Of a DNA stretch of 64,000 nt, positions 1 to 8,736 are shown one piece after another. The stretch is from a virus. The stretch covers positions 10,950-74,949 of IMG/VR virus record IMGVR_UViG_3300045988_118866; one strand, given 5' to 3'. Below the pieces are notes generated by a model. That model did not search any database, was not told where the DNA came from, and saw only the letters and a list, made by a program, of their open reading frames with translations. The stretch's first letter is position 1. Every line of letters begins with the position of its first letter. The translations under genes and the position numbers were made by a program.

Positions 1-64
1 GGTCGAATTTATATAATTATATAAAATTTATTTTTATATAATTATGAAAGGTAGATGTTTAATT

Positions 65-811
65 ATGATAGGAATTTATAAAATTACAAATAAAATAAAT
101 AATCATTGTTATATTGGATAGTCAATAAATATTTATGATAGATGGAAGCATGAAAAAAGTGATGCTTTTCGCGAATAGAGTAAAAACTATGATTATCCTC
201 TTTCACGAGCATTAAGAAAATATGGAGTAGAGAATTTTACTTTTGAAATTTTAGAAGAATGTTCTCGTGAAGATTTAAATAAAAAAGAAATTGAGTATGT
301 TAAAAAATTTAATAGTTATAATGATGGATATAATTAGACATTAGGTGGTGATGGAACCAAAGGGTTTCAAATAAAATTATCTAATGAAGATATTTATGAA
401 ATATATAAATTACTATTAAATGAAGAAATTACTCAAAATGATATAGCAAAAAAATATGGCGTTGGGATAGATACCATATCAGAAATAAATCACGGGAAAA
501 CTAGAATATTAGATGGTTTTACATTTCCTTTAAGAGATAACAGAAAAATTCATTTTTGTGTTGATTGCGGAAAAGAAATTTATCGTAGCTCTATAAGATG
601 TAAAGATTGTGATTCAAAAAATTAGAGAAAAGTAGAACGTCCTTCTCGTGATATTTTCAAATCTGAAATTAGAAATATTTCTTTTTTACAATTAGGTCAT
701 AAATATGGAGTTAGTGATAAATCAATATCTAAATGGTGTAAATATTATAATTTACCTAGTAAAAAATCAGATATAAAGAAAATTTCTGATGAAGATTGGG
801 AAAATATTTAA
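65..811 (+). CDS. GIY-YIG homing endonuclease (I-TevI-like), 4 in-frame TAG read as Gln
   Basis: ATG at 65 and TAA at 809-811. Translation gives MIGIYKITNKINNHCYIG-TAG-S (GIY...YIGQS motif) followed by R-E-TAG-SKNYDYPLSRALRKYGVENFTFEILEECSRED. The stops at 119, 173, 335 and 623 are all TAG. The C-terminal part has a Zn-finger-like CVDCGKEIYRSSIRCKDCD. Confidence 0.8.
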
Positions 812-833
812 TTTTTTAAACAAAAGAACTTTT

Positions 834-866
834 TTGATTTTATAAAAAATATATAATATAATATAT
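834..866 (+). promoter_or_regulatory. conserved phage promoter (TTGATT-N18-TATAAT + ATATAGAAAGTTGAGAAAGGAG)
   Basis: Member of the motif family. Confidence 0.5.
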
Positions 867-896
867 ATAGAAAGTTGAGAAAGGAGAAAATAAATA

Positions 897-1079
897 ATGA
901 ATATTGAAGTTGGTAATTCTTATTGTTTTGTCCCTTATCGCGGTCGTTGCTATCGCAGACAGTATCTTAAATGTACTGTTCTCCGAGTATTAAATTATCA
1001 GATTGAAGTCCTTGATGAACACGGTGAAAAATGGCTTCTTTCAGAAGATGATTTAATGCCAATTCAAAGACCTTATTGA
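897..1079 (+). CDS. hypothetical small protein (60 aa, Cys-rich)
   Basis: ORF preceded by the conserved promoter box and the RBS GAAAGGAG. Confidence 0.5.
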   Translation: MNIEVGNSYCFVPYRGRCYRRQYLKCTVLRVLNYQIEVLDEHGEKWLLSEDDLMPIQRPY

Positions 1080-1110
1080 CATTTTATAAAAAATATTATA
1101 TAATATTTAT
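1076..1110 (+). promoter_or_regulatory. conserved promoter (TTGACA 1076-1081, TATAAT 1099-1104)
   Basis: ttgacattttataaaaaatattatataat. Confidence 0.55.
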
Positions 1111-1163
1111 ATAAAATGAAAAAAGAAAAAAGGAAATAAAAAAACTTGGGTAAAAGAGAAAAG

Positions 1164-1200
1164 TTGATTTTTAAAAAAAAATATAATATAATAAATATAT
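1164..1200 (+). promoter_or_regulatory. conserved promoter variant upstream of tRNA array
   Basis: ttgatttttaaaaaaaaatataatataat. Confidence 0.45.
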
Positions 1201-1232
1201 AAAGTAAGGATTTTAAAAAGTCCTTCTTTTAT

Positions 1233-1309
1233 GGGAGATTAGCTCAGCTGGTCAGAGCGCTTGACTGTTAATCAAGATGCCATAGGTTCGAATCCTATAT
1301 CTCCCGCCA
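1233..1309 (+). tRNA. tRNA-Asn(GTT)
   Basis: Cloverleaf gggagat/atctccc, D-loop agctcagctggtcag, anticodon loop ctGTTaa, T-loop ggttcgaatcc, encoded CCA. Confidence 0.8.
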
Positions 1310-1548
1310 TTGGGGCGTTAACACGGATTTTATAAGTTTAAACTACCACCGATCGAAAGAGTATGTGGCTTGCGGAAAACGCCCGACTAAATATAAGGAA
1401 GCGAAGTAAAACTTATTGTGAAGTAGTGGCTATACTCACATTAATCAAGGCTATGGGTTCTGGGGATCCAAAAGAGTAAAAGTTGGTTCGAGTCCAACGA
1501 CTGACGAAGTTCGAATCTTCGCAATGTGGGTGATAAAACTCTTTATTT

Positions 1549-1633
1549 GCCGAATTGGTGGAATGGTAGACATAGCAGAATTAGACTCTGCCGCCTTAAA
1601 GGTGTAAGAGTTCGAGTCTCTTATTCGGCACCA
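1549..1633 (+). tRNA. tRNA-Leu(TAG), type II
   Basis: Acceptor gccgaat/attcggc, anticodon stem gcaga/tctgc with loop atTAGac, long variable arm, T-loop ttcgagt, CCA. Confidence 0.7.
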
Positions 1634-1721
1634 GTCCCTCCCTGGGAATGCGTTGAAGGCTTGCGAACTTTGAACGCAGGTGGTTGGCAACTCCATCTAT
1701 ACATAAATAAGTTGCGCTTCG

Positions 1722-1796
1722 GGCTTCGGGACTGCATGGCGTGGTCGTCTGTCTTGCACACAGAAAATCAGGTGAGTTCGATTCTCACGAGGTCCA
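1722..1796 (+). tRNA. tRNA-like, anticodon arm tctgt-ctTGCac-acaga (Ala TGC); irregular acceptor
   Basis: Clear anticodon and T arms (gtgag-ttcgatt-ctcac). Acceptor pairing is imperfect, so this may be a degenerate copy. Confidence 0.3.
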
Positions 1797-2264
1797 GTCA
1801 TCTAAAATTCACAACCGCCACGAGGTAGATGATGGGTAACGCTAATAGTGAATAGAAATGGTTATATGGTGTAAAGAGTAAGCACGGCGGTTAAGTAAAC
1901 CGCAAGTTCGGGAGCATTGCCCGATATAACCGATTATATGATTGGTGATAAAAGCAGCCAGAAATATTATCTTATTAATTAAACTTAATACAATATACTA
2001 AATGATATAATAGATAAGGTATATTAATAAAACTTATATACAATAAGATAATATATACAAAATGCTAATAGTGATTTTGGTTTCAGCGCTAAGAAAGTTT
2101 TTCCCACTAAGAAGAGAAAATTTGAAGAGTTAGCGTAGTCTAGAAGTTATTCTTAAATAACTCCCGTTTTGGTTTGTAGCCTTTTTCGGAAAATAAAATG
2201 GTATTATAGTAAATTATGCAAATCGTGACGCCGCGAAGGGACGGCCGCCCTAAAGTGCGATTAA

Positions 2265-2395
2265 GATTAGAAAGAAGTTGGAAGATCTTCTTAAAACTTC
2301 CATTAGATTAGAAAGAAGTTTTAAGGATTCTTCTTAAAAATCCAATTAGATGATTAAAAAGAAGTTTTGAGGATTCTTCTTAAAAATCCTCTTAG
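2265..2395 (+). repeat. three tandem about 43-bp units, each a hairpin with conserved loop CTTCTTAAAA and covarying stems
   Basis: Stems tggaag/cttcca, ggatt/aatcc and gaggatt/aatcctc around tcttcttaaaa. Each unit is preceded by gattagaaagaagtt. Confidence 0.6.
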
Positions 2396-2399
2396 TTAT

Positions 2400-2487
2400 G
2401 CTTTGATGGCGGAATTGGCAGACGCGATCGGCTCAAACCCGATTATCCGAACGGATGGTGAGAGTTCAAGTCTCTCTCGAAGCACCA
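2400..2487 (+). tRNA. tRNA-Leu(CAA), type II
   Basis: Acceptor gctttga/tcgaagc, D-arm gcggaattggcagacgc, anticodon loop ctCAAac, long variable arm, T-loop ttcaagt, CCA. Confidence 0.75.
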
Positions 2488-2604
2488 GTCACCTCCTTTA
2501 ATTAGTAGGTTAGTGTAGAAATGGTAAGCATTTATGAATATTGACGGCGGTGGAGTGGCGACCATCGTTAACAAATATCGCTTCTTGGTTAGTCTTTTAA
2601 TCTT

Positions 2605-2640
2605 TTGACATTTTATAAAAAATAAGTTATAATATTTATA
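2605..2640 (+). promoter_or_regulatory. conserved promoter (TTGACA-N17-TATAAT)
   Basis: ttgacattttataaaaaataagttataat. Confidence 0.55.
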
Positions 2641-2667
2641 GAAAGTTAAGAAAGGAAGATTTAAATT

Positions 2668-2775
2668 ATGTATAATGATTACTATGAAAGCTATGCTTGT
2701 GAGATTCAGAGTGATGAATATGCTGCTTATCAGGATCTTTCCCTTTATGAAGATGAGGATGAATACCGTGAATAA
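2668..2775 (+). CDS. hypothetical small acidic peptide (35 aa); alternative +1-frame ORF 2675..2923 is K-rich
   Basis: The ATG sits at the canonical spacing after the promoter/AAAGGAAG box at 2605-2660. Both candidate ORFs are short, so this call is uncertain. Confidence 0.3.
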   Translation: MYNDYYESYACEIQSDEYAAYQDLSLYEDEDEYRE

Positions 2776-2926
2776 AAGTTATATGAAAAAGAATAAGGAA
2801 GAACTCAATGAGTATCTTCAGTTGTTTCGACGCAGAGGATTTAAAGTTCCTGCGAAAAAAGGCAAAGGTTCATTTAAGCGAAAACAAAAGCACAAAAATC
2901 AAGATTATGATAGATGTGCTTAATAT

Positions 2927-3004
2927 GGCCCCATCTGACTAAATGGCTTAGGTGGCAACCCTCTCAAGGTTGAGATGTCAGTTCGAATCTGGCTGGGGTC
3001 ACCA
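2927..3004 (+). tRNA. tRNA-Glu(CTC)-like
   Basis: Acceptor ggcccca/tggggtc, anticodon stem caacc/ggttg with loop ctCTCaa, T-loop ttcgaat, CCA. The D-arm pairs poorly. Confidence 0.45.
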
Positions 3005-3072
3005 CCCGATTTAATTCATTAAACAATAATCGGAGGAGTTATACTTCTTCTTTAACAAAAAGTAATATATTT

Positions 3073-3149
3073 GCTCCCATCGACAAGCGGACTTAAGTCA
3101 CCAGCCTTTCACGTTGGAGTCGCCGGTTCGAATCCGGCTGGGAGTACCA
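3073..3149 (+). tRNA. tRNA-Glu(TTC)
   Basis: Acceptor gctccca/tgggagt, anticodon stem ccagc/gttgg with loop ctTTCac, T-arm gccgg-ttcgaat-ccggc, CCA. Confidence 0.6.
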
Positions 3150-3152
3150 TAT

Positions 3153-3228
3153 GGCCCCGGGGGCAGTCAGCAGAGCCGCGTGCCTGTCACGCACGAGATA
3201 GCCGGGTCGGCACCGGTCGGGGTCGCCA
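3153..3228 (+). tRNA. tRNA-Asp(GTC), GC-rich, atypical T-loop
   Basis: Acceptor ggccccg/cggggtc plus g plus cca. Anticodon stem cgtgc/gcacg with loop ctGTCac. The T-loop reads gtcggca rather than ttcRAnn. Local GC is far above the genome average. Confidence 0.5.
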
Positions 3229-3388
3229 TACGTTGGCATCATTCTTATGTCTATGTAAGTGCGCAGGTGGTCGCACAAAAGCCTCTACAAAAGTTGGCCA
3301 TTTGATGAGGTCTATTAAGAATTTTGGGACGATGGGTTAGAAAGTCCAATAGATATAATGGTCGCGAATATTATATCTATCCCATTTT

Positions 3389-3464
3389 CGGTCAATAGCT
3401 TAATTGGTAGAGCATTGTTCTCATAAGACAAGGGATATTAGTTCGATTCTAATTTGACCGACCA
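3389..3464 (+). tRNA. tRNA-Met/Ile2(CAT)
   Basis: Acceptor cggtcaa/ttgaccg, D-arm gcttaattggtagagc, anticodon stem ttgtt/gacaa with loop ctCATaa, T-arm attag-ttcgatt-ctaat, CCA. Confidence 0.75.
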
Positions 3465-3466
3465 TT

Positions 3467-3548
3467 GCGGTAGAGTGAAACGGATATATAAATCATGCCA
3501 GGCTCATAACCTGCGCGATACAGGGTTCGACTCCCTTGAACCGCAACC
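3467..3548 (+). tRNA. second CAT-anticodon tRNA-like gene (irregular arms)
   Basis: Anticodon arm cagg-ctCATaa-cctg and T-loop agggttcgactccct. Acceptor and D-arm are non-canonical. Confidence 0.35.
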
Positions 3549-3668
3549 ATAAGGCACACACAGCAATCATTTTCTATTGAAAGTATTTTAACTCATTGGT
3601 AGAGTATTTGTCTGTTAAACAAATTGTAGTTGGTTTAATTCCAACAAATATTTCATTTGTGTCTTGTA
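3548..3668 (+). other. leader/trailer cassette enclosing intact tRNA-Asn(3582-3653)
   Basis: Leader aaggcacacacagcaatcattttc and trailer catttgtgtcttg. The cacaca and tgtgtctt segments are complementary. Confidence 0.45.
3582..3653 (+). tRNA. tRNA-Asn(GTT) second copy, AT-rich, inside leader/trailer cassette
   Basis: Acceptor agtattt/aaatatt, D-arm actcattggtagagt, anticodon tttgt-ctGTTaa-acaaa, T-arm gttgg-tttaatt-ccaac. CCA is not encoded. Confidence 0.55.
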
Positions 3669-3698
3669 AATTAAAATAATCCAAAAGGAGATATCTAA

Positions 3699-3902
3699 AT
3701 GAAGTTTAAGTTTAAGCCCGGCGACAAGGTTTATTCTAAGAAGTACGGTAAGGGCTTTTGCCATCAGGTTGATGAACAGGATAAGGATTTTACTTATGAT
3801 TTCCATTTTAAGGATGGCACAATCATTTGGATGTCCCGATATGATGGTGAGCGTTATGTAAAGTTCCGCAGACCGAAGAACGCGGAACCCGCGAACGCAT
3901 AA
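3699..3902 (+). CDS. hypothetical protein (67 aa)
   Basis: ORF with RBS AAAGGAGA 8 nt upstream. Confidence 0.5.
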   Translation: MKFKFKPGDKVYSKKYGKGFCHQVDEQDKDFTYDFHFKDGTIIWMSRYDGERYVKFRRPKNAEPANA

Positions 3903-3928
3903 TTTATCTTTCCTTTCTTTTTGAATAA

Positions 3929-4002
3929 CAAAGACGCTAACAGCAAATTTTAAAACATTGATGTACTAAATACATATGCTTGAAATTGTTTACGGCGTCT
4001 TG
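3929..4002 (+). other. leader/trailer cassette (no tRNA inside)
   Basis: caaagacgc-taacagcaaatttt ... gcgtcttg inverted flanks. Confidence 0.45.
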
Positions 4003-4116
4003 TTCTATTTATATTGTTGATGTAGTACGATAAATAAAATATCACATTCTTTTAGTCAGTTTTAAAGGAAGAATGACTACGTGGAGAATCGGGAATCGTA
4101 GCAATATAAATATTAT

Positions 4117-4192
4117 GGGCGGATAGCTCAGCTGGTAGAGCGTAGGATTGAAGATCCTAGCGTCGGCAGTTCGATTCTGTCTCCGCCCACCA
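4117..4192 (+). tRNA. tRNA-Phe(GAA)
   Basis: gggcgga/tccgccc, D-arm gctcagctggtagagc, anticodon tagga-ttGAAga-tccta, T-loop gttcgattc, CCA. Confidence 0.8.
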
Positions 4193-4286
4193 AAAGACCA
4201 ACAAATGAGGAACCACTTTGCTGCTCGTGGCTGTTGGGATGCCTGTTAGAAAGGCTACTCTTCTATATATTTAAATATATAGAAAC

Positions 4287-4315
4287 AAAAGACTATACAA
4301 TAGAGAGAGTCTTTT
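4287..4315 (+). other. minimal AAAAGACT...AGTCTTTT hairpin (cassette-flank motif alone)
   Basis: aaaagactatacaatagagagagtctttt. Confidence 0.35.
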
Positions 4316-4601
4316 ACATCTAGTTCATTTTCTTACTTATCTTTCTGTTTGATTTCCCCTTTCGTTTGATATATAGATTGTTATTTTCTCTCACTTCTAT
4401 GGGAATGAATTGTTTTTCTACTCTCTATTTTGTTTCATAAAATTAAATAAAAAAGGAGGATTGTCTGATATGTTTAAAGATGTTGATGATTTGATCTTTG
4501 GCGATGAGTGCGAATTTTGTCCTAGCGAACGATAAGTGCGGTCGCCTACTTAATGCTACCATAGGCTGGTTCCAAGTCCAGAAAAGCAGAGGAGGTAGAA
4601 T

Positions 4602-4838
4602 ATGAAAAATATTTTAAGTTATAAAAATCCTTGTTTTAGCGGTCAAGAAATTCTTGATTGGGCTAATTACCAAGTAAATAATAAAACTTCTCATTATAAA
4701 CAGGGATTGAGAGTTTTAAATTTATTTGGTAATATTAAACCTGATAGAAAATATTATATTTTTAGTAATTATCGCACTTGGCGTAGTTATTGTGGATATA
4801 GTATTAAACCTAAGTTAATCATATATAGGTGTAAATAA
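4602..4838 (+). CDS. hypothetical protein (78 aa)
   Basis: ORF with RBS GAGGAGG upstream. Confidence 0.5.
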   Translation: MKNILSYKNPCFSGQEILDWANYQVNNKTSHYKQGLRVLNLFGNIKPDRKYYIFSNYRTWRSYCGYSIKPKLIIYRCK

Positions 4839-4930
4839 ATAGAATAATTGAGGCGTTGGGCGAGGGTGTGGTATGGTTTAAACGAGGATATCATCTGTTT
4901 AAGCAGTAAATTATTCTATTTATATATTAT

Positions 4931-5021
4931 GAAGGAGTGGCAGAGCTGGTTGAATGCGGCACCCTGCTAAGGTGTTGGCCTTATTTGGGGCCCGGAGGTT
5001 CGAATCCTCTCTCCTTCGCCA
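4931..5021 (+). tRNA. tRNA-Ser(GCT), type II
   Basis: gaaggag/ctccttc, anticodon gcacc-ctGCTaa-ggtgt, long variable arm, T-arm ggagg-ttcgaat-cctct, CCA. Confidence 0.75.
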
Positions 5022-5048
5022 TTAAATTTTAAATTAAGAGGATTAAGT

Positions 5049-6188
5049 ATGAATATTGTAAACGCTGGTTCTCGCTATCAAATTTATGGCGAGGACGTTA
5101 AGACTTATAAGCGACTTCCGCTTATGTCTTTTGAAATCTGCTTTAATAAGATGGCAGGTTTTTATCTTTCTTCTCGTTCTGATCTTGCGATCAATGAGGA
5201 AAAGATTTATGGTAATCATGAAGTTAAAGTCAATAAGGTGCTTAATTCTTTTAAGCACTCGGACCGCAATCTTGGTGTTATCCTAAGCGGACAAAAGGGT
5301 ATTGGCAAGTCATTGTTTGCTCGTATTCTTTCTCATCAAGCTATTGAAGACGGGTATCCTGTTCTCTTGGCTAATACTTATATGCCTGGTATCGCAGATT
5401 TTATTTCTAGCATCGAGCAGGAAGTCGTAGTTATTTTCGACGAGTTTGAAAAGAATTTTGCTTCTAATGTTGAGGAGCATGTGGGGCCATCTCCGCAGGA
5501 AGAAATGCTTTCTCTCTTTGATGGTCTTGATAATGGTAAGAAACTCTTTGTTATTACTTGTAATGAAGTTGATCGACTTAATACTTATCTATTGAATCGA
5601 CCGGGCCGTTTCCATTATCATTTTAAGATTACTTATCCAACAGAGGAAGAGATTGTAGAGTATCTTACCGATAAGGTTGATAAGAAGTATGCAGACGGCA
5701 TTAAGGATATTGTGAATTTCTCTCGCACCGTTAATATGACTTATGATTATCTTCGTGCTATCGCATTTGAACTTAATCAGGGTTATGGTGTGGCAGAAAC
5801 TCTTGAAGACCTTAATATCTCTCAGACTTCCAATGTTCGTTTCAATATCACTATTACTACGGTAAATGGTGATGTGTATAATACCTATGGTGCTTCAGTT
5901 AATTTGTTTAGCAATCCTAATACTAATCATCAAAGATGGTATGATGGTTATGCCTCGGATAGTAAGACTATTCGTTATGCATTAACCCCTGATTCAATTA
6001 AGATTGAAAAGGGTATGATTACTGCTGATTCGAAAAAGGTTGAAGTCTATATTGATCCTGATGACTTTTGGACGATCAGCAATGAGGAAAAGCGTAAGGA
6101 AGCTATTGAGAAGGCTAAGAATGAGCGCGTAATTAAGTCTGTTGTTTTAACTAAGGTCGCAAACACTATTGAACAGTATCTTTATTAA
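5049..6188 (+). CDS. AAA+ family ATPase
   Basis: Walker A GQKGIGKS and Walker B VVIFDEFE. Codon usage has GC-rich third positions, which suggests high expression. RBS AAGAGGA upstream. Confidence 0.75.
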   Translation: MNIVNAGSRYQIYGEDVKTYKRLPLMSFEICFNKMAGFYLSSRSDLAINEEKIYGNHEVKVNKVLNSFKHSDRNLGVILSGQKGIGKSLFARILSHQAIEDGYPVLLANTYMPGIADFISSIEQEVVVIFDEFEKNFASNVEEHVGPSPQEEMLSLFDGLDNGKKLFVITCNEVDRLNTYLLNRPGRFHYHFKITYPTEEEIVEYLTDKVDKKYADGIKDIVNFSRTVNMTYDYLRAIAFELNQGYGVAETLEDLNISQTSNVRFNITITTVNGDVYNTYGASVNLFSNPNTNHQRWYDGYASDSKTIRYALTPDSIKIEKGMITADSKKVEVYIDPDDFWTISNEEKRKEAIEKAKNERVIKSVVLTKVANTIEQYLY

Positions 6189-6189
6189 C

Positions 6190-6232
6190 GCGGCGGCCGA
6201 TGTAAAGTGAATATACTTTACATCGGCCCTTT
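6190..6232 (+). terminator. rho-independent terminator (core GATGTAAAGT...ACTTTACATC)
   Basis: cggccgatgtaaagtgaatatactttacatcggccctttttg. Confidence 0.7.
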
Positions 6233-6270
6233 TTGACTTTATAAAAAAAATATTATATAATAAATATATG
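6233..6270 (+). promoter_or_regulatory. conserved promoter upstream of tRNA-Leu/His pair
   Basis: ttgactttataaaaaaaatattatataat. Confidence 0.5.
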
Positions 6271-6284
6271 AAAAATAAACAAAT

Positions 6285-6371
6285 GCTTTTGTGATGGAAT
6301 TGGTATACATGCTAGACTAAGAATCTAGTGGGCGCAAGTTCGTGTGAGTTCGAGTCTCACCAAAAGCACCA
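6285..6371 (+). tRNA. tRNA-Leu-like type II with anticodon loop ctAAGaa (A34)
   Basis: gcttttg/caaaagc, anticodon stem ctaga/tctag, long variable arm, T-arm gtgag-ttcgagt-ctcac, CCA. Confidence 0.5.
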
Positions 6372-6372
6372 T

Positions 6373-6448
6373 GTGGCTGTAGCTCAGTTGGTAGAGCGTC
6401 TGATTGTGGCTCAGAATGTCGCGGATTCGAATTCCGCCAGTCACCCCA
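6373..6448 (+). tRNA. tRNA-His(GTG)
   Basis: gtggctg/cagtcac, D-arm gctcagttggtagagc, anticodon tctga-ttGTGgc-tcaga, T-arm gcgga-ttcgaat-tccgc, CCA. Confidence 0.75.
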
Positions 6449-6606
6449 ATAGTAAGTAGGTGAAATTATGAATTATACCGTAGATTAGTTAATCGCTGAA
6501 TGGAAAGATTAGATTGCTTCTATGAAGTATTATAATTATAGTCCAGAGATTATTGATAAAAATGAGTAGATTCTTATTTATTTCCAAGAGTTAAAGGAGT
6601 ATAAAG

Positions 6607-7125
6607 ATGGAAATCGAACGTAAGTTTGATATTAAAAATATCCCTTCTTGGATGAAGGAAAAGAGTGTTCGTCATAAGAAAATTGAACAAATTTATCTTA
6701 TGATTGATTTTGATAATGATGGTAAAGTGCTTGAAGAAATTCGAGTGCGGAAAGCCATTAATCTTAAAACCAATCAAGTTGATTATAAGATGACATATAA
6801 ATATGGCGATGGTCTGTCTCGTGAAGAAGTTGAAACATCTATTTCTGCGGATTTCTATGAAATGATTAGAAAAACTCGACACGAAGGTTATAATCCTATT
6901 ATTAAGGATTATTACATGGTTCAAGATATTCATAACCCTGGACGTTTGATCGAAGTTAGTGAAGTAGACGGAAAATTTTGTTATGCAGAAGTTGAATTTC
7001 CTGATGAAAAGACTGCTAATGAATATGTCTGGCCTTATCCTGAAATTTTAGGGCCAAAAGGTGAAATGACTAATCAACCGGAAGAACGAATGTCTGTTTA
7101 TTGGTTGAAATCGCGAGTTTCTTGA
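6607..7125 (+). CDS. CYTH-domain (triphosphate tunnel metalloenzyme, CyaB/ThTPase-like) protein
   Basis: N-terminus MEIERKF is the hallmark EXEXK start of CYTH domains, with acidic clusters downstream. A hairpin terminator follows. Confidence 0.55.
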   Translation: MEIERKFDIKNIPSWMKEKSVRHKKIEQIYLMIDFDNDGKVLEEIRVRKAINLKTNQVDYKMTYKYGDGLSREEVETSISADFYEMIRKTRHEGYNPIIKDYYMVQDIHNPGRLIEVSEVDGKFCYAEVEFPDEKTANEYVWPYPEILGPKGEMTNQPEERMSVYWLKSRVS

Positions 7126-7315
7126 CTCGCCGATCTGGGGTGGTAAGTCAAAGGCTAGACTAGGCGACTTATCTGTGGGTAGTTTAAATGGTAAAATATT
7201 GGAAGCGCTACAAAGATTTAAGTTCAAATCTTAGCTCACAGGCCAAATCGCTCAATGGAGAGTTCGAGTCTCCCTCGCCCTACCATTGTCATGGTATTTC
7301 CTTTCTTAACTAAAT

Positions 7316-7387
7316 AAAGACTCATACAGCAACTTTTTTGCTTGCAATAAGCGCTTAATGTGGGATTAAGAAGAATAAAGAGTCTTG
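7316..7387 (+). other. leader/trailer cassette (no tRNA inside), upstream of tRNA-Arg
   Basis: aaagactc-atacagcaactttttt ... gagtcttg. Confidence 0.45.
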
Positions 7388-7397
7388 TAGCGAATTT

Positions 7398-7474
7398 GTC
7401 CCCGTAGTTCAGTTGGATAGAACAAAGGATTTCTAATCCTTGTGTCGGGCGTTCGAATCGCTCCGGGGATGCCA
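7398..7474 (+). tRNA. tRNA-Arg(TCT)
   Basis: gtccccg/cggggat, D-arm gttcagttggatagaac, anticodon aagga-ttTCTaa-tcctt, T-arm gggcg-ttcgaat-cgctc, CCA. Confidence 0.75.
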
Positions 7475-7534
7475 AGGGTATATCCCATTAATAAGAATCA
7501 TTAAAACCTTAAAAATATTAAGGAAGGTGATTCG

Positions 7535-8392
7535 ATGAAAATATATTCTCCAAGCAATTATTCATATGTAAAAATTATTGAAATTCCAAAAGAAGAAATT
7601 AGTAAATTAGATATGGCGCTATGCGCTCAACCGCGTTAGACTTTAAAGCAATATTATGATAGTTGTGCGGTTAAACCTACTATTTTAACTAATGGTGGTT
7701 TCTTTAGTATGGATAATGGCGCTACTTGTTTTAATTATATGGACAATGGTATAATCATTAATTCCACTTCTTCTTATAAAGAAGGCTTTGGTATCATTAA
7801 TGGTGAATTGAAATACGGTATAATTGGAACAGAAAAGTTTGAAGATTTTGTTAGCGGTTATCCAGTATTAATTAAGGCTGGCAAAAAAACTCAAATTACT
7901 TATGCCAAAGAGTTAAATTATAAAGCCCGTAGAACAGTATTAGCATATAATAAATCTAATATTTATTTAATTGCTATTGAAAAGCCAGGTATGGCGTTCG
8001 CAGAAATGTAGAATTTACTTTTAGCATTAAAGGTTGATTATGCGATTAACCTTGATGGCGGTGGTAGCACAAAAGTTCTTTATAACGGGACTTGTATTAC
8101 CAAAGATTGGGGCGATCGCGCAGTAGATAATGTAATGGCCGTTTATCTCAAACCGCAAATCATTTACCGCGTTCAACTTGGTGCTTTTGGATCTAAATCT
8201 AATGCTGATGCTTTCTTATTGAAGATTAAAGCATTACCTGATACTATTGGAGCAGGTTATAAAAATGCTTATATTCGTAAGATTGGTAAGTATTATAAAG
8301 TTCAAGTCGGTGCTTTTTCTGTAAAAGCAAATGCTATTAAAGTAATCAATGATTTAAAATCAAAAGGTTATAACGCATTTTTAACTACTTAA
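7535..8392 (+). CDS. phosphodiester glycosidase-like (DUF2233/NAGPA-like) protein with C-terminal SPOR peptidoglycan-binding domain; 2 TAG read-through
   Basis: One frame from ATG 7535 to TAA 8390-8392 once the TAGs at 7634 and 8009 are read as Gln. It joins the 7709 and 8135 track ORFs. The C-terminus YRVQLGAFGSKSNADAFLLKIK...YKVQVGAFSVKANA is a SPOR repeat pair. Confidence 0.65.
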
Positions 8393-8401
8393 TAAAACTT
8401 T

Positions 8402-8440
8402 TTGACATTTATAAAAAAATATTATATAATAAATATATAA
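8402..8440 (+). promoter_or_regulatory. conserved promoter upstream of tRNA/cassette region
   Basis: ttgacatttataaaaaaatattatataat. Confidence 0.55.
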
Positions 8441-8620
8441 AGTTAAGAAATAAATAAGACAATTCAGATGGAGTCTTTAAACTAACTGATAACGTCGTAG
8501 GATAGGGTAATGGATGCCTCATTGAGAAGAACGGAATTATAAAGCCCTCCCTCACCGTAATGTGAGTAAAAACTATAAATTAAATTTGCCATTCAATTTA
8601 ATTTGTTTATAAAGACTAAA

Positions 8621-8732
8621 ACAGCAATTTTTATCATAAAGGGAACTATGTGTTGAAGGTTCAAGTCCTTCGCTCCCGGCCATCGGGAGTTAGCTCAACT
8701 GGTAGAGCAATAGTATTGATAATTTAGTCTTG
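8621..8732 (+). ncRNA. candidate circularly permuted tRNA gene (3' portion 8645-8682, then t, then 5' portion 8684-8721) inside leader/trailer cassette
   Basis: Upstream part is actat-gtgtt-gaagg-ttcaagt-ccttc-gctcccg-g-cca, which covers tRNA positions 39-76. One nt later comes cgggagt-ta-gctc-aactggta-gagc-a-atagt-attgata, which covers positions 1-38. The acceptor halves pair 7/7 and the anticodon stem atagt/actat pairs 5/5. Joining gives the loop atTGAta. The flanks aaagactaaa (8621-8630) and tttagtcttg (8723-8732) pair 9/9. Confidence 0.5.
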
Positions 8733-8736
8733 TTTT

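Follow-up and report, generated by a model that had tools for sequence, protein, structure and literature searches.

The stretch of DNA analysed here (64,000 nucleotides (nt), hereafter the window) comes from the IMG/VR virus record IMGVR_UViG_3300045988_118866, a phage genome with a GC content of 34%, and contains 25 transfer RNA (tRNA) genes as called by ARAGORN. Upstream of one of these, the gene for tRNA-Leu(CAA), three repeat units of 41-46 nt each follow one another head to tail and span positions 2260-2391 (Table 1). Tandem Repeats Finder returned them as a single array (2260-2389, period 46, 3.0 copies, 85% matches, score 172), so that the three tandem units noticed in an earlier reading of the letters alone (the sequence-only reading) are indeed present upstream of this tRNA. 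The array is an undescribed structured RNA motif that is not in Rfam and is confined to one clade of gut phages.

A composite motif of the array, AGAAGTTNNNNGGANTCTTCTTAAAA, had two matches, both within the array and none elsewhere in the 64 kilobases (kb), and at least two matches occurred in 0 of 100 shuffles. Generic pseudoknot geometry is frequent by chance in this AT-rich window, with 84 matches compared to about 39 in shuffles, and a generic pseudoknot descriptor was discarded as a detector as it is uninformative in such DNA. Because this geometry is so common, the significance of the array rests on repetition and covariation rather than on foldability. A short open reading frame (ORF) of 31 amino acids (2216-2311) overlaps the array, and its frame is broken by the unit-number variants of relatives.

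Table 1 Coordinates of the array, its parts and its direct neighbours in the window
Feature	Position	Strand	Sequence, parts and basis
GC-rich element	2225..2259	+	GTGACGCCGCGAAGGGACGGCCGCCCTAAAGTGCG; directly upstream of the array; in every array-bearing locus
Linker 1, A/U-rich, single-stranded	2260..2271	+	ATTAAGATTAGA; consensus (A)TTAGAT(GAT)TAGAA ahead of each unit in all loci
Pseudoknot unit 1, type A	2272..2301	+	Sequence and pseudoknot descriptor match
Unit 1 S1	2272-2277 with 2287-2292	+	AAGAAG with CTTCTT
Unit 1 S2	2280-2284 with 2297-2301	+	GGAAG with CTTCC
Unit 1 loops		+	L1 TT, L2 AT, L3 AAAA
Linker	2302..2312	+	ATTAGATTAGA; sequence
Pseudoknot unit 2, type B variant	2313..2343	+	Sequence, unit alignment and pair counts
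Unit 2 S1	2313-2318 with 2330-2335	+	AAGAAG with CTTCTT
Unit 2 S2	2325-2329 with 2339-2343	+	GGATT with AATCC
Unit 2 loops		+	L1 TTTTAA, L3 AAA
Linker	2344..2358	+	AATTAGATGATTAAA; sequence
Pseudoknot unit 3, type B, last unit in all arrays	2359..2391	+	Sequence, descriptor match and pair counts
Unit 3 S1	2359-2364 with 2376-2381	+	AAGAAG with CTTCTT
Unit 3 S2	2369-2375 with 2385-2391	+	GAGGATT with AATCCTC
Unit 3 loops		+	L1 TTTT, L3 AAA
Spacer of 8 nt, last pseudoknot to RNase P site of the tRNA	2392..2399	+	TTAGTTAT; sequence
tRNA-Leu(CAA)	2400..2487	+	CCA encoded; co-transcription with the array presumed; ARAGORN, Rfam tRNA 51.6 bits

Two interleaved helices in each repeat unit

The sequence-only reading had described each unit as a hairpin in which a compensatorily changing stem encloses an identical loop. 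The stems hold (S2 in Table 1): each unit carries GGAAG, GGATT or GAGGATT with its own complement, and in the window as in homologues the substitutions are compensatory or lead to G.U, so that pairing is kept. The identical loop does not. The segment inside the stem, which ends in CTTCTTAAA(A) in all three units, measures 12 nt in the first and 9 nt in the other two. It contains CTTCTT, which forms the 3' side of another helix, S1, as it pairs with the upstream AAGAAG and changes alongside it in relatives (AACAAG/CTTGTT, AAGAGG/CCTCTT). Because S1 interleaves with S2 and covaries, there is little doubt that each unit is an H-type pseudoknot. The core of a unit measures 30-33 nt and consists of an S1 of 6 base pairs (bp), an S2 of 5-7 bp, an L1 of UU or UUUU(+), an L2 of 0-2 nt, which has no nucleotides in type B units, and an L3 of AAA(A), of which AAA is invariant. 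Cores are joined by conserved A/U-rich linkers of 11-15 nt, (A)UUAGAU(GAU)UAGAA, with UUAGAUUAGAA as the strongly conserved linker motif.

For the covariation analysis, 19 distinct units were aligned, their register made explicit by padding with N, and pairs were then counted. Standard pairs filled 95.7% of 231 cells (98% in S1, 93% in S2), and both sides had changed in 5 of 13 pairs, two of them in S1 and three in S2. The observed covariation score and percentage paired were reached in none of 500 column shuffles, and sliding the partners by 1-3 columns lowered pairing to 45-63%. The best nested alternative, the minimum free energy (MFE) fold of type A units, was rejected at 70% paired and zero covariation. 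Individual changes follow the same scheme. Unit 1 in relatives shows the AACAAG/CTTGTT form of S1 as well as the G.U variants GAGAAG, CTTTC and CTTCT, unit 2 in the relative L030 has GGGTT/AATCC, which retains a G.U pair, and unit 3 in L009-type relatives combines AAGAGG/CCTCTT with GGGATT/AATCCC, so that both helices are compensated within one unit.

Some points count against the strength of this fold. Perhaps 4-5 independent events, all in closely related genomes, lie behind the double changes, and the alignment of S2 between type A and type B units was guided by structure, which that of S1 was not. Pairs are also broken in two units, namely unit 2 of L092 (C.C) and unit 2 of L057 (A.C), the former of which looks recombinant (AACAAG...CTTCTT).

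Read on the plus strand, the one-sided changes give seven G.U pairs and one A.C, and the same seven would be C.A mismatches on the minus strand. This ratio of 7:1, together with the plus orientation of all 25 tRNAs, points to the array acting as a plus-strand RNA; nearly all ORFs of the window are likewise on this strand. The MFE of the whole region gave z-scores of -1.05 for the plus strand (no better than shuffles) and -4.9 for the minus strand, values that are uninformative or misleading here as ViennaRNA cannot model pseudoknots. A minus-strand fold was set aside: its better score comes only from the G.U pairs that the T-rich strand can add by lengthening a hairpin, an extension to which the S1 covariation gives no support.

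Occurrence and copy number among related phages

Comparison across homologous loci, which the sequence-only reading had named as a check, supports both helices and finds the array in related genomes, absence from which that reading had named as its refutation. About 25 homologous loci have it at the same site, and every one of them belongs to a single clade of human-gut phages of roughly 125-200 kb; the locus set comprised 17 loci with the upstream boundary in sequence, plus further ones. Exact-pattern scans recovered the order GC-rich element, array, tRNA-Leu(CAA) in 9 IMG/VR contigs of 124-197 kb and in 12 human-gut metagenome contigs, and more array-bearing ENA assemblies were reached via the neighbouring AAA-ATPase gene. 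The arrangement is also found in L156 (CAMELE010000001.1, 163,874 bp), a contig of an 'uncultured Mollicutes' metagenome-assembled genome (MAG). L156 represents a near-complete genome of the phage clade inside this MAG, which could be a binning artefact or a hint at the host. Two further search patterns in IMG/VR were abandoned, as a tRNA D-arm pattern returned mostly unrelated tRNA-Leu genes and a linker-only pattern (AGATTAGAAA...AGATTAGAAA) returned the known relatives, every new locus being an unrelated coding or low-complexity repeat.

Units number 2, 3 or 4 in complete arrays, and 5 are apparently present in one contig that is split over two loci. Copy number varies even between near-identical genomes, and because relatives carry 2 to about 5 copies, gain and loss of units by slippage or recombination clearly occurs. 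The order of units is fixed in all complete arrays, with type A (S2 GGAAG/CTTCC) first and type B last, the final type B unit having GAGGATT/AATCCTC or GGGATT/AATCCC as its S2. The flanks are about 95-100% identical among relatives and the tRNA-Leu(CAA) gene is 100% conserved. Variation is concentrated locally in the array, which evolves faster than its flanks, as would be expected of an arms-race element.

Array units are missing from phages that have the same tRNA-Leu anticodon arm (L089, L091, L097-L100, L102, L106, L108 and L111), among them L099 and L100, two phages of about 200 kb that were reached by the tRNA pattern. The phage L224 is syntenic, with an AAA protein 62% identical, the same tRNA order, the promoter and the ArfA-like gene described below, and also lacks the array. 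Because relatives with the same gene order or anticodon arm do without it, the array is a lineage-specific insertion into the tRNA leader and no requirement of the tRNA itself.

The GC-rich element in front of the array has a wider distribution. Across array-bearing loci it varies only at 2229 (C/T) and 2236 (A/G), and the array-less L089, L091, L097-L100 and L224 have a related element at a distance of about 6-10 nt from the tRNA (about 6 nt from tRNA-Leu in the last). Distant phages (L099/L100, L224 at 3925-3963, L102/L106) share the form GTGAYRCYGCC-hairpin-AAAKGTG directly upstream of tRNA-Leu(CAA), without an array. Its central hairpin is compensated between lineages (GGCGG/CCGCC vs GAGG/CCTC, loop GTCCGGAA). 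The sequence-only reading had seen a GC-rich hairpin before the repeats; a conserved GC-rich element does lie there, of which only weak, small hairpins are predicted (about -10 kcal/mol). It had no Rfam match, and comparison by eye with ribozymes of the pistol, twister and hepatitis delta virus (HDV)-like types led to no identification that Rfam supports. Further upstream, the segment 2140-2224 exists as two alleles, and in both of them a compensated AT-rich hairpin precedes CCCGTTTTGG.

Likeness to type III antitoxins and competing explanations

Tandem H-type pseudoknots with A-rich tails and variable copy number are shared by ToxI, CptI, TenpI, antiQ and the repeated abiF motif of RCd22 (PMC3401426, PMC4627078, PMC5086642, PMC12373285). 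Repeats of type III antitoxins are 31-62 nt long and present in 1.9-5.6 copies, those of cptI measuring 40-48 nt (PMC3401426, Table 2). Every type III antitoxin whose structure has been solved is an H-type pseudoknot that carries single-stranded tails, and in CptI (45 nt) an A-rich loop lies in the minor groove of S1 (PMC4627078). The cognate endoribonuclease cleaves the repeats apart in the linker, after which the repeats inhibit the enzyme (PMC5086642), and tenpI repeats have been reported as non-identical (PMC12283969). The array is similar to these antitoxins in its units of 41-46 nt, its 2 to about 5 copies, the predicted H-type fold, the character of its linkers and its copy-number polymorphism. 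A weak resemblance is also seen between the unit boundary of CptI, which falls between GA and AAG, and GAAAG at the junction of linker and S1 in the array.

A second comparison is offered by phage PhiTE, which escapes ToxIN abortive infection when its pseudo-ToxI array, a non-coding one of 1.5 repeats, grows to 4.5 or 5.5 repeats (PMC3475682). Pseudo-ToxI is an RNA mimic that suppresses the abortive infection (Abi) toxin. Like it, the array described here is a non-coding, intergenic repeat array of varying repeat number in a large tRNA-bearing phage (PhiTE is a myovirus).

These likenesses suggest, tentatively and with a confidence that stays short of probable, that the array is a decoy against a host endoribonuclease toxin and works like a type III antitoxin. 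The array would be transcribed on the plus strand within the 5' leader of pre-tRNA-Leu(CAA), with the L3 AAA(A) of the predicted fold positioned for the minor groove of S1, and RNase P cutting at 2399/2400 would free it from the tRNA. The freed RNA could then work in trans and, much as type III antitoxins do, serve as a decoy that binds protein at several sites, each pseudoknot with its A-rich tails binding and neutralising a host endoribonuclease, probably an abortive-infection toxin, and the phage would thereby evade RNA-targeting defence. The repeat, its conservation, both interleaved helices and the strand are established by the analysis; in this chain it is transcription, processing and protein target that we infer. 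Perhaps, though this is more doubtful, the array is an orphan type-III-like antitoxin grafted onto a tRNA gene and released by RNase P as an anti-abortive-infection RNA, which would evolve quickly, by compensatory changes and by gaining or losing units, in an arms race with host endoribonuclease toxins inside an 'RNA-damage counter-defence island' of tRNAs, the ArfA-like gene and RNA repair genes. The window encodes several RNA-damage-response proteins, namely cREC_REC (cyclic-phosphate-processing), RlaP, PNK-like AAA_33/KTI12, metallophosphatases and a ligase, and also the ArfA-like ribosome-rescue factor described below, a context that fits the decoy reading and is no proof of it.

Several observations weigh against such a decoy. 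Unlike type III antitoxins, which are found on chromosomes or plasmids, the array lies on a large phage of lytic type, is joined to a tRNA gene and has neither a terminator nor a toxin gene downstream. Membership in the type III toxin-antitoxin systems is not claimed because this defining operon of terminator and toxin gene is absent. No terminator-like site was found in 1900-2700, and hence none behind the array, and the stretch directly upstream of it offered no assignable sigma-70-like promoter. Among the families listed, no ToxN, AbiQ or Abi_2 was found in 60 window ORFs of at least 90 amino acids (Pfam 25/42 and 25/31; PADLOC), a scan that covered the 64-kb window of a roughly 190-kb genome, and the small ORFs of the tRNA region at 6607, 10456 and 11441 gave no toxin-like PDB match. 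Two unit types that differ in S2 sequence and in loop length stand side by side in the array, in contrast to the near-identical repeats of ToxI and CptI, and the array shows no similarity to the CptI(Er) sequence from PMC4627078. Permissive Rfam searches (E up to 10) of 2100-2420 and 1-12000 gave only noise for the array, and BLAST against GenBank phages and PLSDB plasmids gave no match to it. Pseudo-ToxI is recognisably homologous to host ToxI, whereas no host cognate of the array was found: an exact-pattern scan based on S1 across 185,579 GTDB species representatives, which a diverged cognate would escape, returned no similar units, only 46 single chance matches and the phage itself, binned in a MAG. 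The view that suits the array best is that of a variant of the antitoxin or decoy RNAs built from repeated pseudoknots, one that is fused to a tRNA gene.

Alternatively, the array could act solely in cis, as a leader that stabilises or times the maturation of pre-tRNA-Leu(CAA) for example by blocking 5'-to-3' exonucleases, by controlling RNase P access or as a pause module in transcription or processing, without any function in trans. That it always lies 8 nt upstream of this one tRNA, and on its strand, would agree with this, as would a tRNA region rich in cis-processing RNAs, including HDV-like and twister-like matches. A leader of this kind is nonetheless unlikely, as the other 24 tRNAs of the window have none, relatives with the same anticodon arm or gene order have no array, and a maturation signal would not be expected to vary in copy number or to come in two unit types.

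The copy-number differences between nearly identical genomes (2 to about 5) and the hybrid unit 2 of L092, which suggests unequal recombination, would also be in line with a selfish or neutral minisatellite driven by slippage, its self-complementarity being incidental or serving repeat propagation only. Compensatory and G.U-only substitutions in two helices, the invariant AAA of L3, the strongly conserved linker motif and the fixed order of type A first and type B last make this improbable. The expectation of the sequence-only reading, a structured RNA rather than a plain slippage repeat, is borne out.

Tandem ligand-binding aptamers are slightly less probable again. Size and topology fit (core of about 30-33 nt, U-rich L1, A-rich L3), since preQ1-I, SAM-II and SAM/SAH aptamers are also compact H-type pseudoknots with an A-rich 3' loop. 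In contrast to these, the array has no covariance-model match, with no Rfam riboswitch found at E up to 10 and permissive filters, and no loop forming a ligand pocket, type B units having no L2 nucleotides for a pocket of the preQ1-I type. An expression platform is also absent (no terminator, ribosome-binding site or controlled start codon), and the downstream gene encodes a tRNA.

A function at the level of DNA, as origin iterons, a packaging site or operator palindromes, had been among the suggestions of the sequence-only reading and is to be given as little weight as the aptamers. Tandem repeats of about 41-46 bp near a very AT-rich, 98-100% conserved non-coding region (1950-2125), with an imperfect palindrome in each unit, would suit it. 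Both of the interleaved complementarities covary, however, S2 differs among the units of one array, so that one protein could not read all of them, and pairing retained through G.U has no meaning in duplex DNA and is strand-specific here (7:1). GC skew is positive across the whole window with no switch, and an initiator gene was not recognised near the array. Simple hairpins without a pseudoknot, whether small-RNA hairpins or a site recognised by a protein through its loop, would suit a covarying S2 that alone forms the MFE structure of unit 3 (-7.2 kcal/mol), and are hardly tenable since CTTCTT changes only together with AAGAAG (CTTGTT/AACAAG, CCTCTT/AAGAGG), the recombinant-looking unit 2 of L092 being the one exception.

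Other arrangements were compared with the array as well. The upstream pseudoknot domain of tobamoviruses and PK2-PK4 of transfer-messenger RNA (tmRNA) are each three consecutive small H-type pseudoknots adjoining a tRNA-shaped domain. The array likewise consists of three consecutive small pseudoknots beside a tRNA, but those of tobamoviruses and tmRNA are not repeats of each other, and the partner of the array is a true tRNA gene that has both an anticodon and CCA. ARAGORN found no tmRNA, the partner being an ordinary tRNA-Leu(CAA). A CRISPR array or RNA anti-CRISPR repeat was rejected, as the units are joined by a conserved linker of 11-15 nt with no unique spacers. The literature searched, including the theta-ribozyme paper on such phages, makes no mention of the array, and tandem pseudoknots in connection with phage and tRNA were not found there.

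To our knowledge, very few cases of RNA-based anti-defence exist, such as the pseudo-ToxI of PhiTE, which came to light under laboratory selection, and RNA anti-CRISPRs. If the decoy reading holds, a naturally fixed and fast-evolving decoy array in abundant gut phages would make type III antitoxin mimicry a standing viral strategy, the array sequence would serve as a handle to find matching host toxins, and phage tRNA genes would gain a new use as processing handles for other RNAs. Even if it does not, the array is a new RNA motif supported by covariation in a region rich in theta/HDV-like ribozymes and suppressor tRNAs.

The tRNA-Leu trailer, the ArfA-like gene and the wider tRNA region

Downstream of the tRNA, the trailer (2488-2604, plus strand) begins with GTCACCTCCTTTAAT, a copy of the 3' end of 16S rRNA (anti-Shine-Dalgarno), which is followed by the GC-rich stretch GACGGCGGTGGAGTGGCGACCATCG. 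L224 is without a segment of about 115 nt of this trailer, the promoter there coming directly after the tRNA. As both the array and the trailer segment are missing in L224, there are clade-specific insertions on both flanks of tRNA-Leu.

The sole full-consensus sigma-70-like promoter found in the search around the array (2605-2633, a perfect TTGACA-17-TATAAT) lies downstream of tRNA-Leu and precedes an ORF for an ArfA-like ribosome-rescue protein of 82 amino acids (2675-2923, plus strand; motif LFRRRGFKVPAKKGKGSFKRKQKHKNQ), which starts 190 nt downstream of tRNA-Leu and ends 4 nt before tRNA-Glu(CTC) at 2927-3004. The ORF aligns to E. coli ArfA (Pfam PF03889 with an E value of 7e-5, below cutoff; PDB ArfA chains with an E value of 0.02), and L224 keeps the same arrangement with a KKGKG motif. 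A phage ArfA beside a tRNA recalls the regulation of E. coli arfA through truncated mRNA.

A 17-nt tandem repeat (2035-2070) lies within the very AT-rich non-coding segment 1950-2125, whose sequence is 98-100% identical across all relatives. Several weak matches to known RNAs accompany the tRNA genes. Two matches to an HDV-like ribozyme (F. prausnitzii type, 'theta') at 1797-1855 and 10259-10313 (plus strand; 28.5 and 27.7 bits, short of the 44 bits set as gathering score) lie directly 3' of tRNA-Ala and of the tRNA with the CTA anticodon, and both contain GGGTAAYGCTAA; the segment 1800-1849 is poorly conserved among relatives. A twister-P1-like match at 4547-4597 (plus strand, 40.4 bits, gathering score 67.2, E 3.9e-6) is located between tRNA genes, and tRNA genes are overlapped or adjoined by weak Y RNA-like (YrlA) matches at 8633-8742 and 6321-6431 (plus strand, 33 and 29.5 bits). 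Rfam adds a tRNA at 7173-7242 (plus strand, 41.8 bits) that is not among the ARAGORN calls.

Two tRNAs of suppressor type, at 10186-10258 and 11537-11616 (plus strand), have the anticodons CTA, which reads TAG, and TCA, which reads TGA; the long ORFs of the window are intact in the standard code despite them. Conflict-related content of the window includes, besides cREC_REC, RlaP and AAA_33/KTI12, three metallophosphatases, an ATP-dependent ligase, PIN_4, ParE_toxin-like, Macro/DarG-like, NADAR and PD-(D/E)XK proteins, GIY-YIG homing endonucleases, two Mtd_N proteins (tropism, of the type of diversity-generating retroelements), and gyrase A and B. DUF2828, MVP_shoulder and Band_7 proteins are encoded in the window as well.

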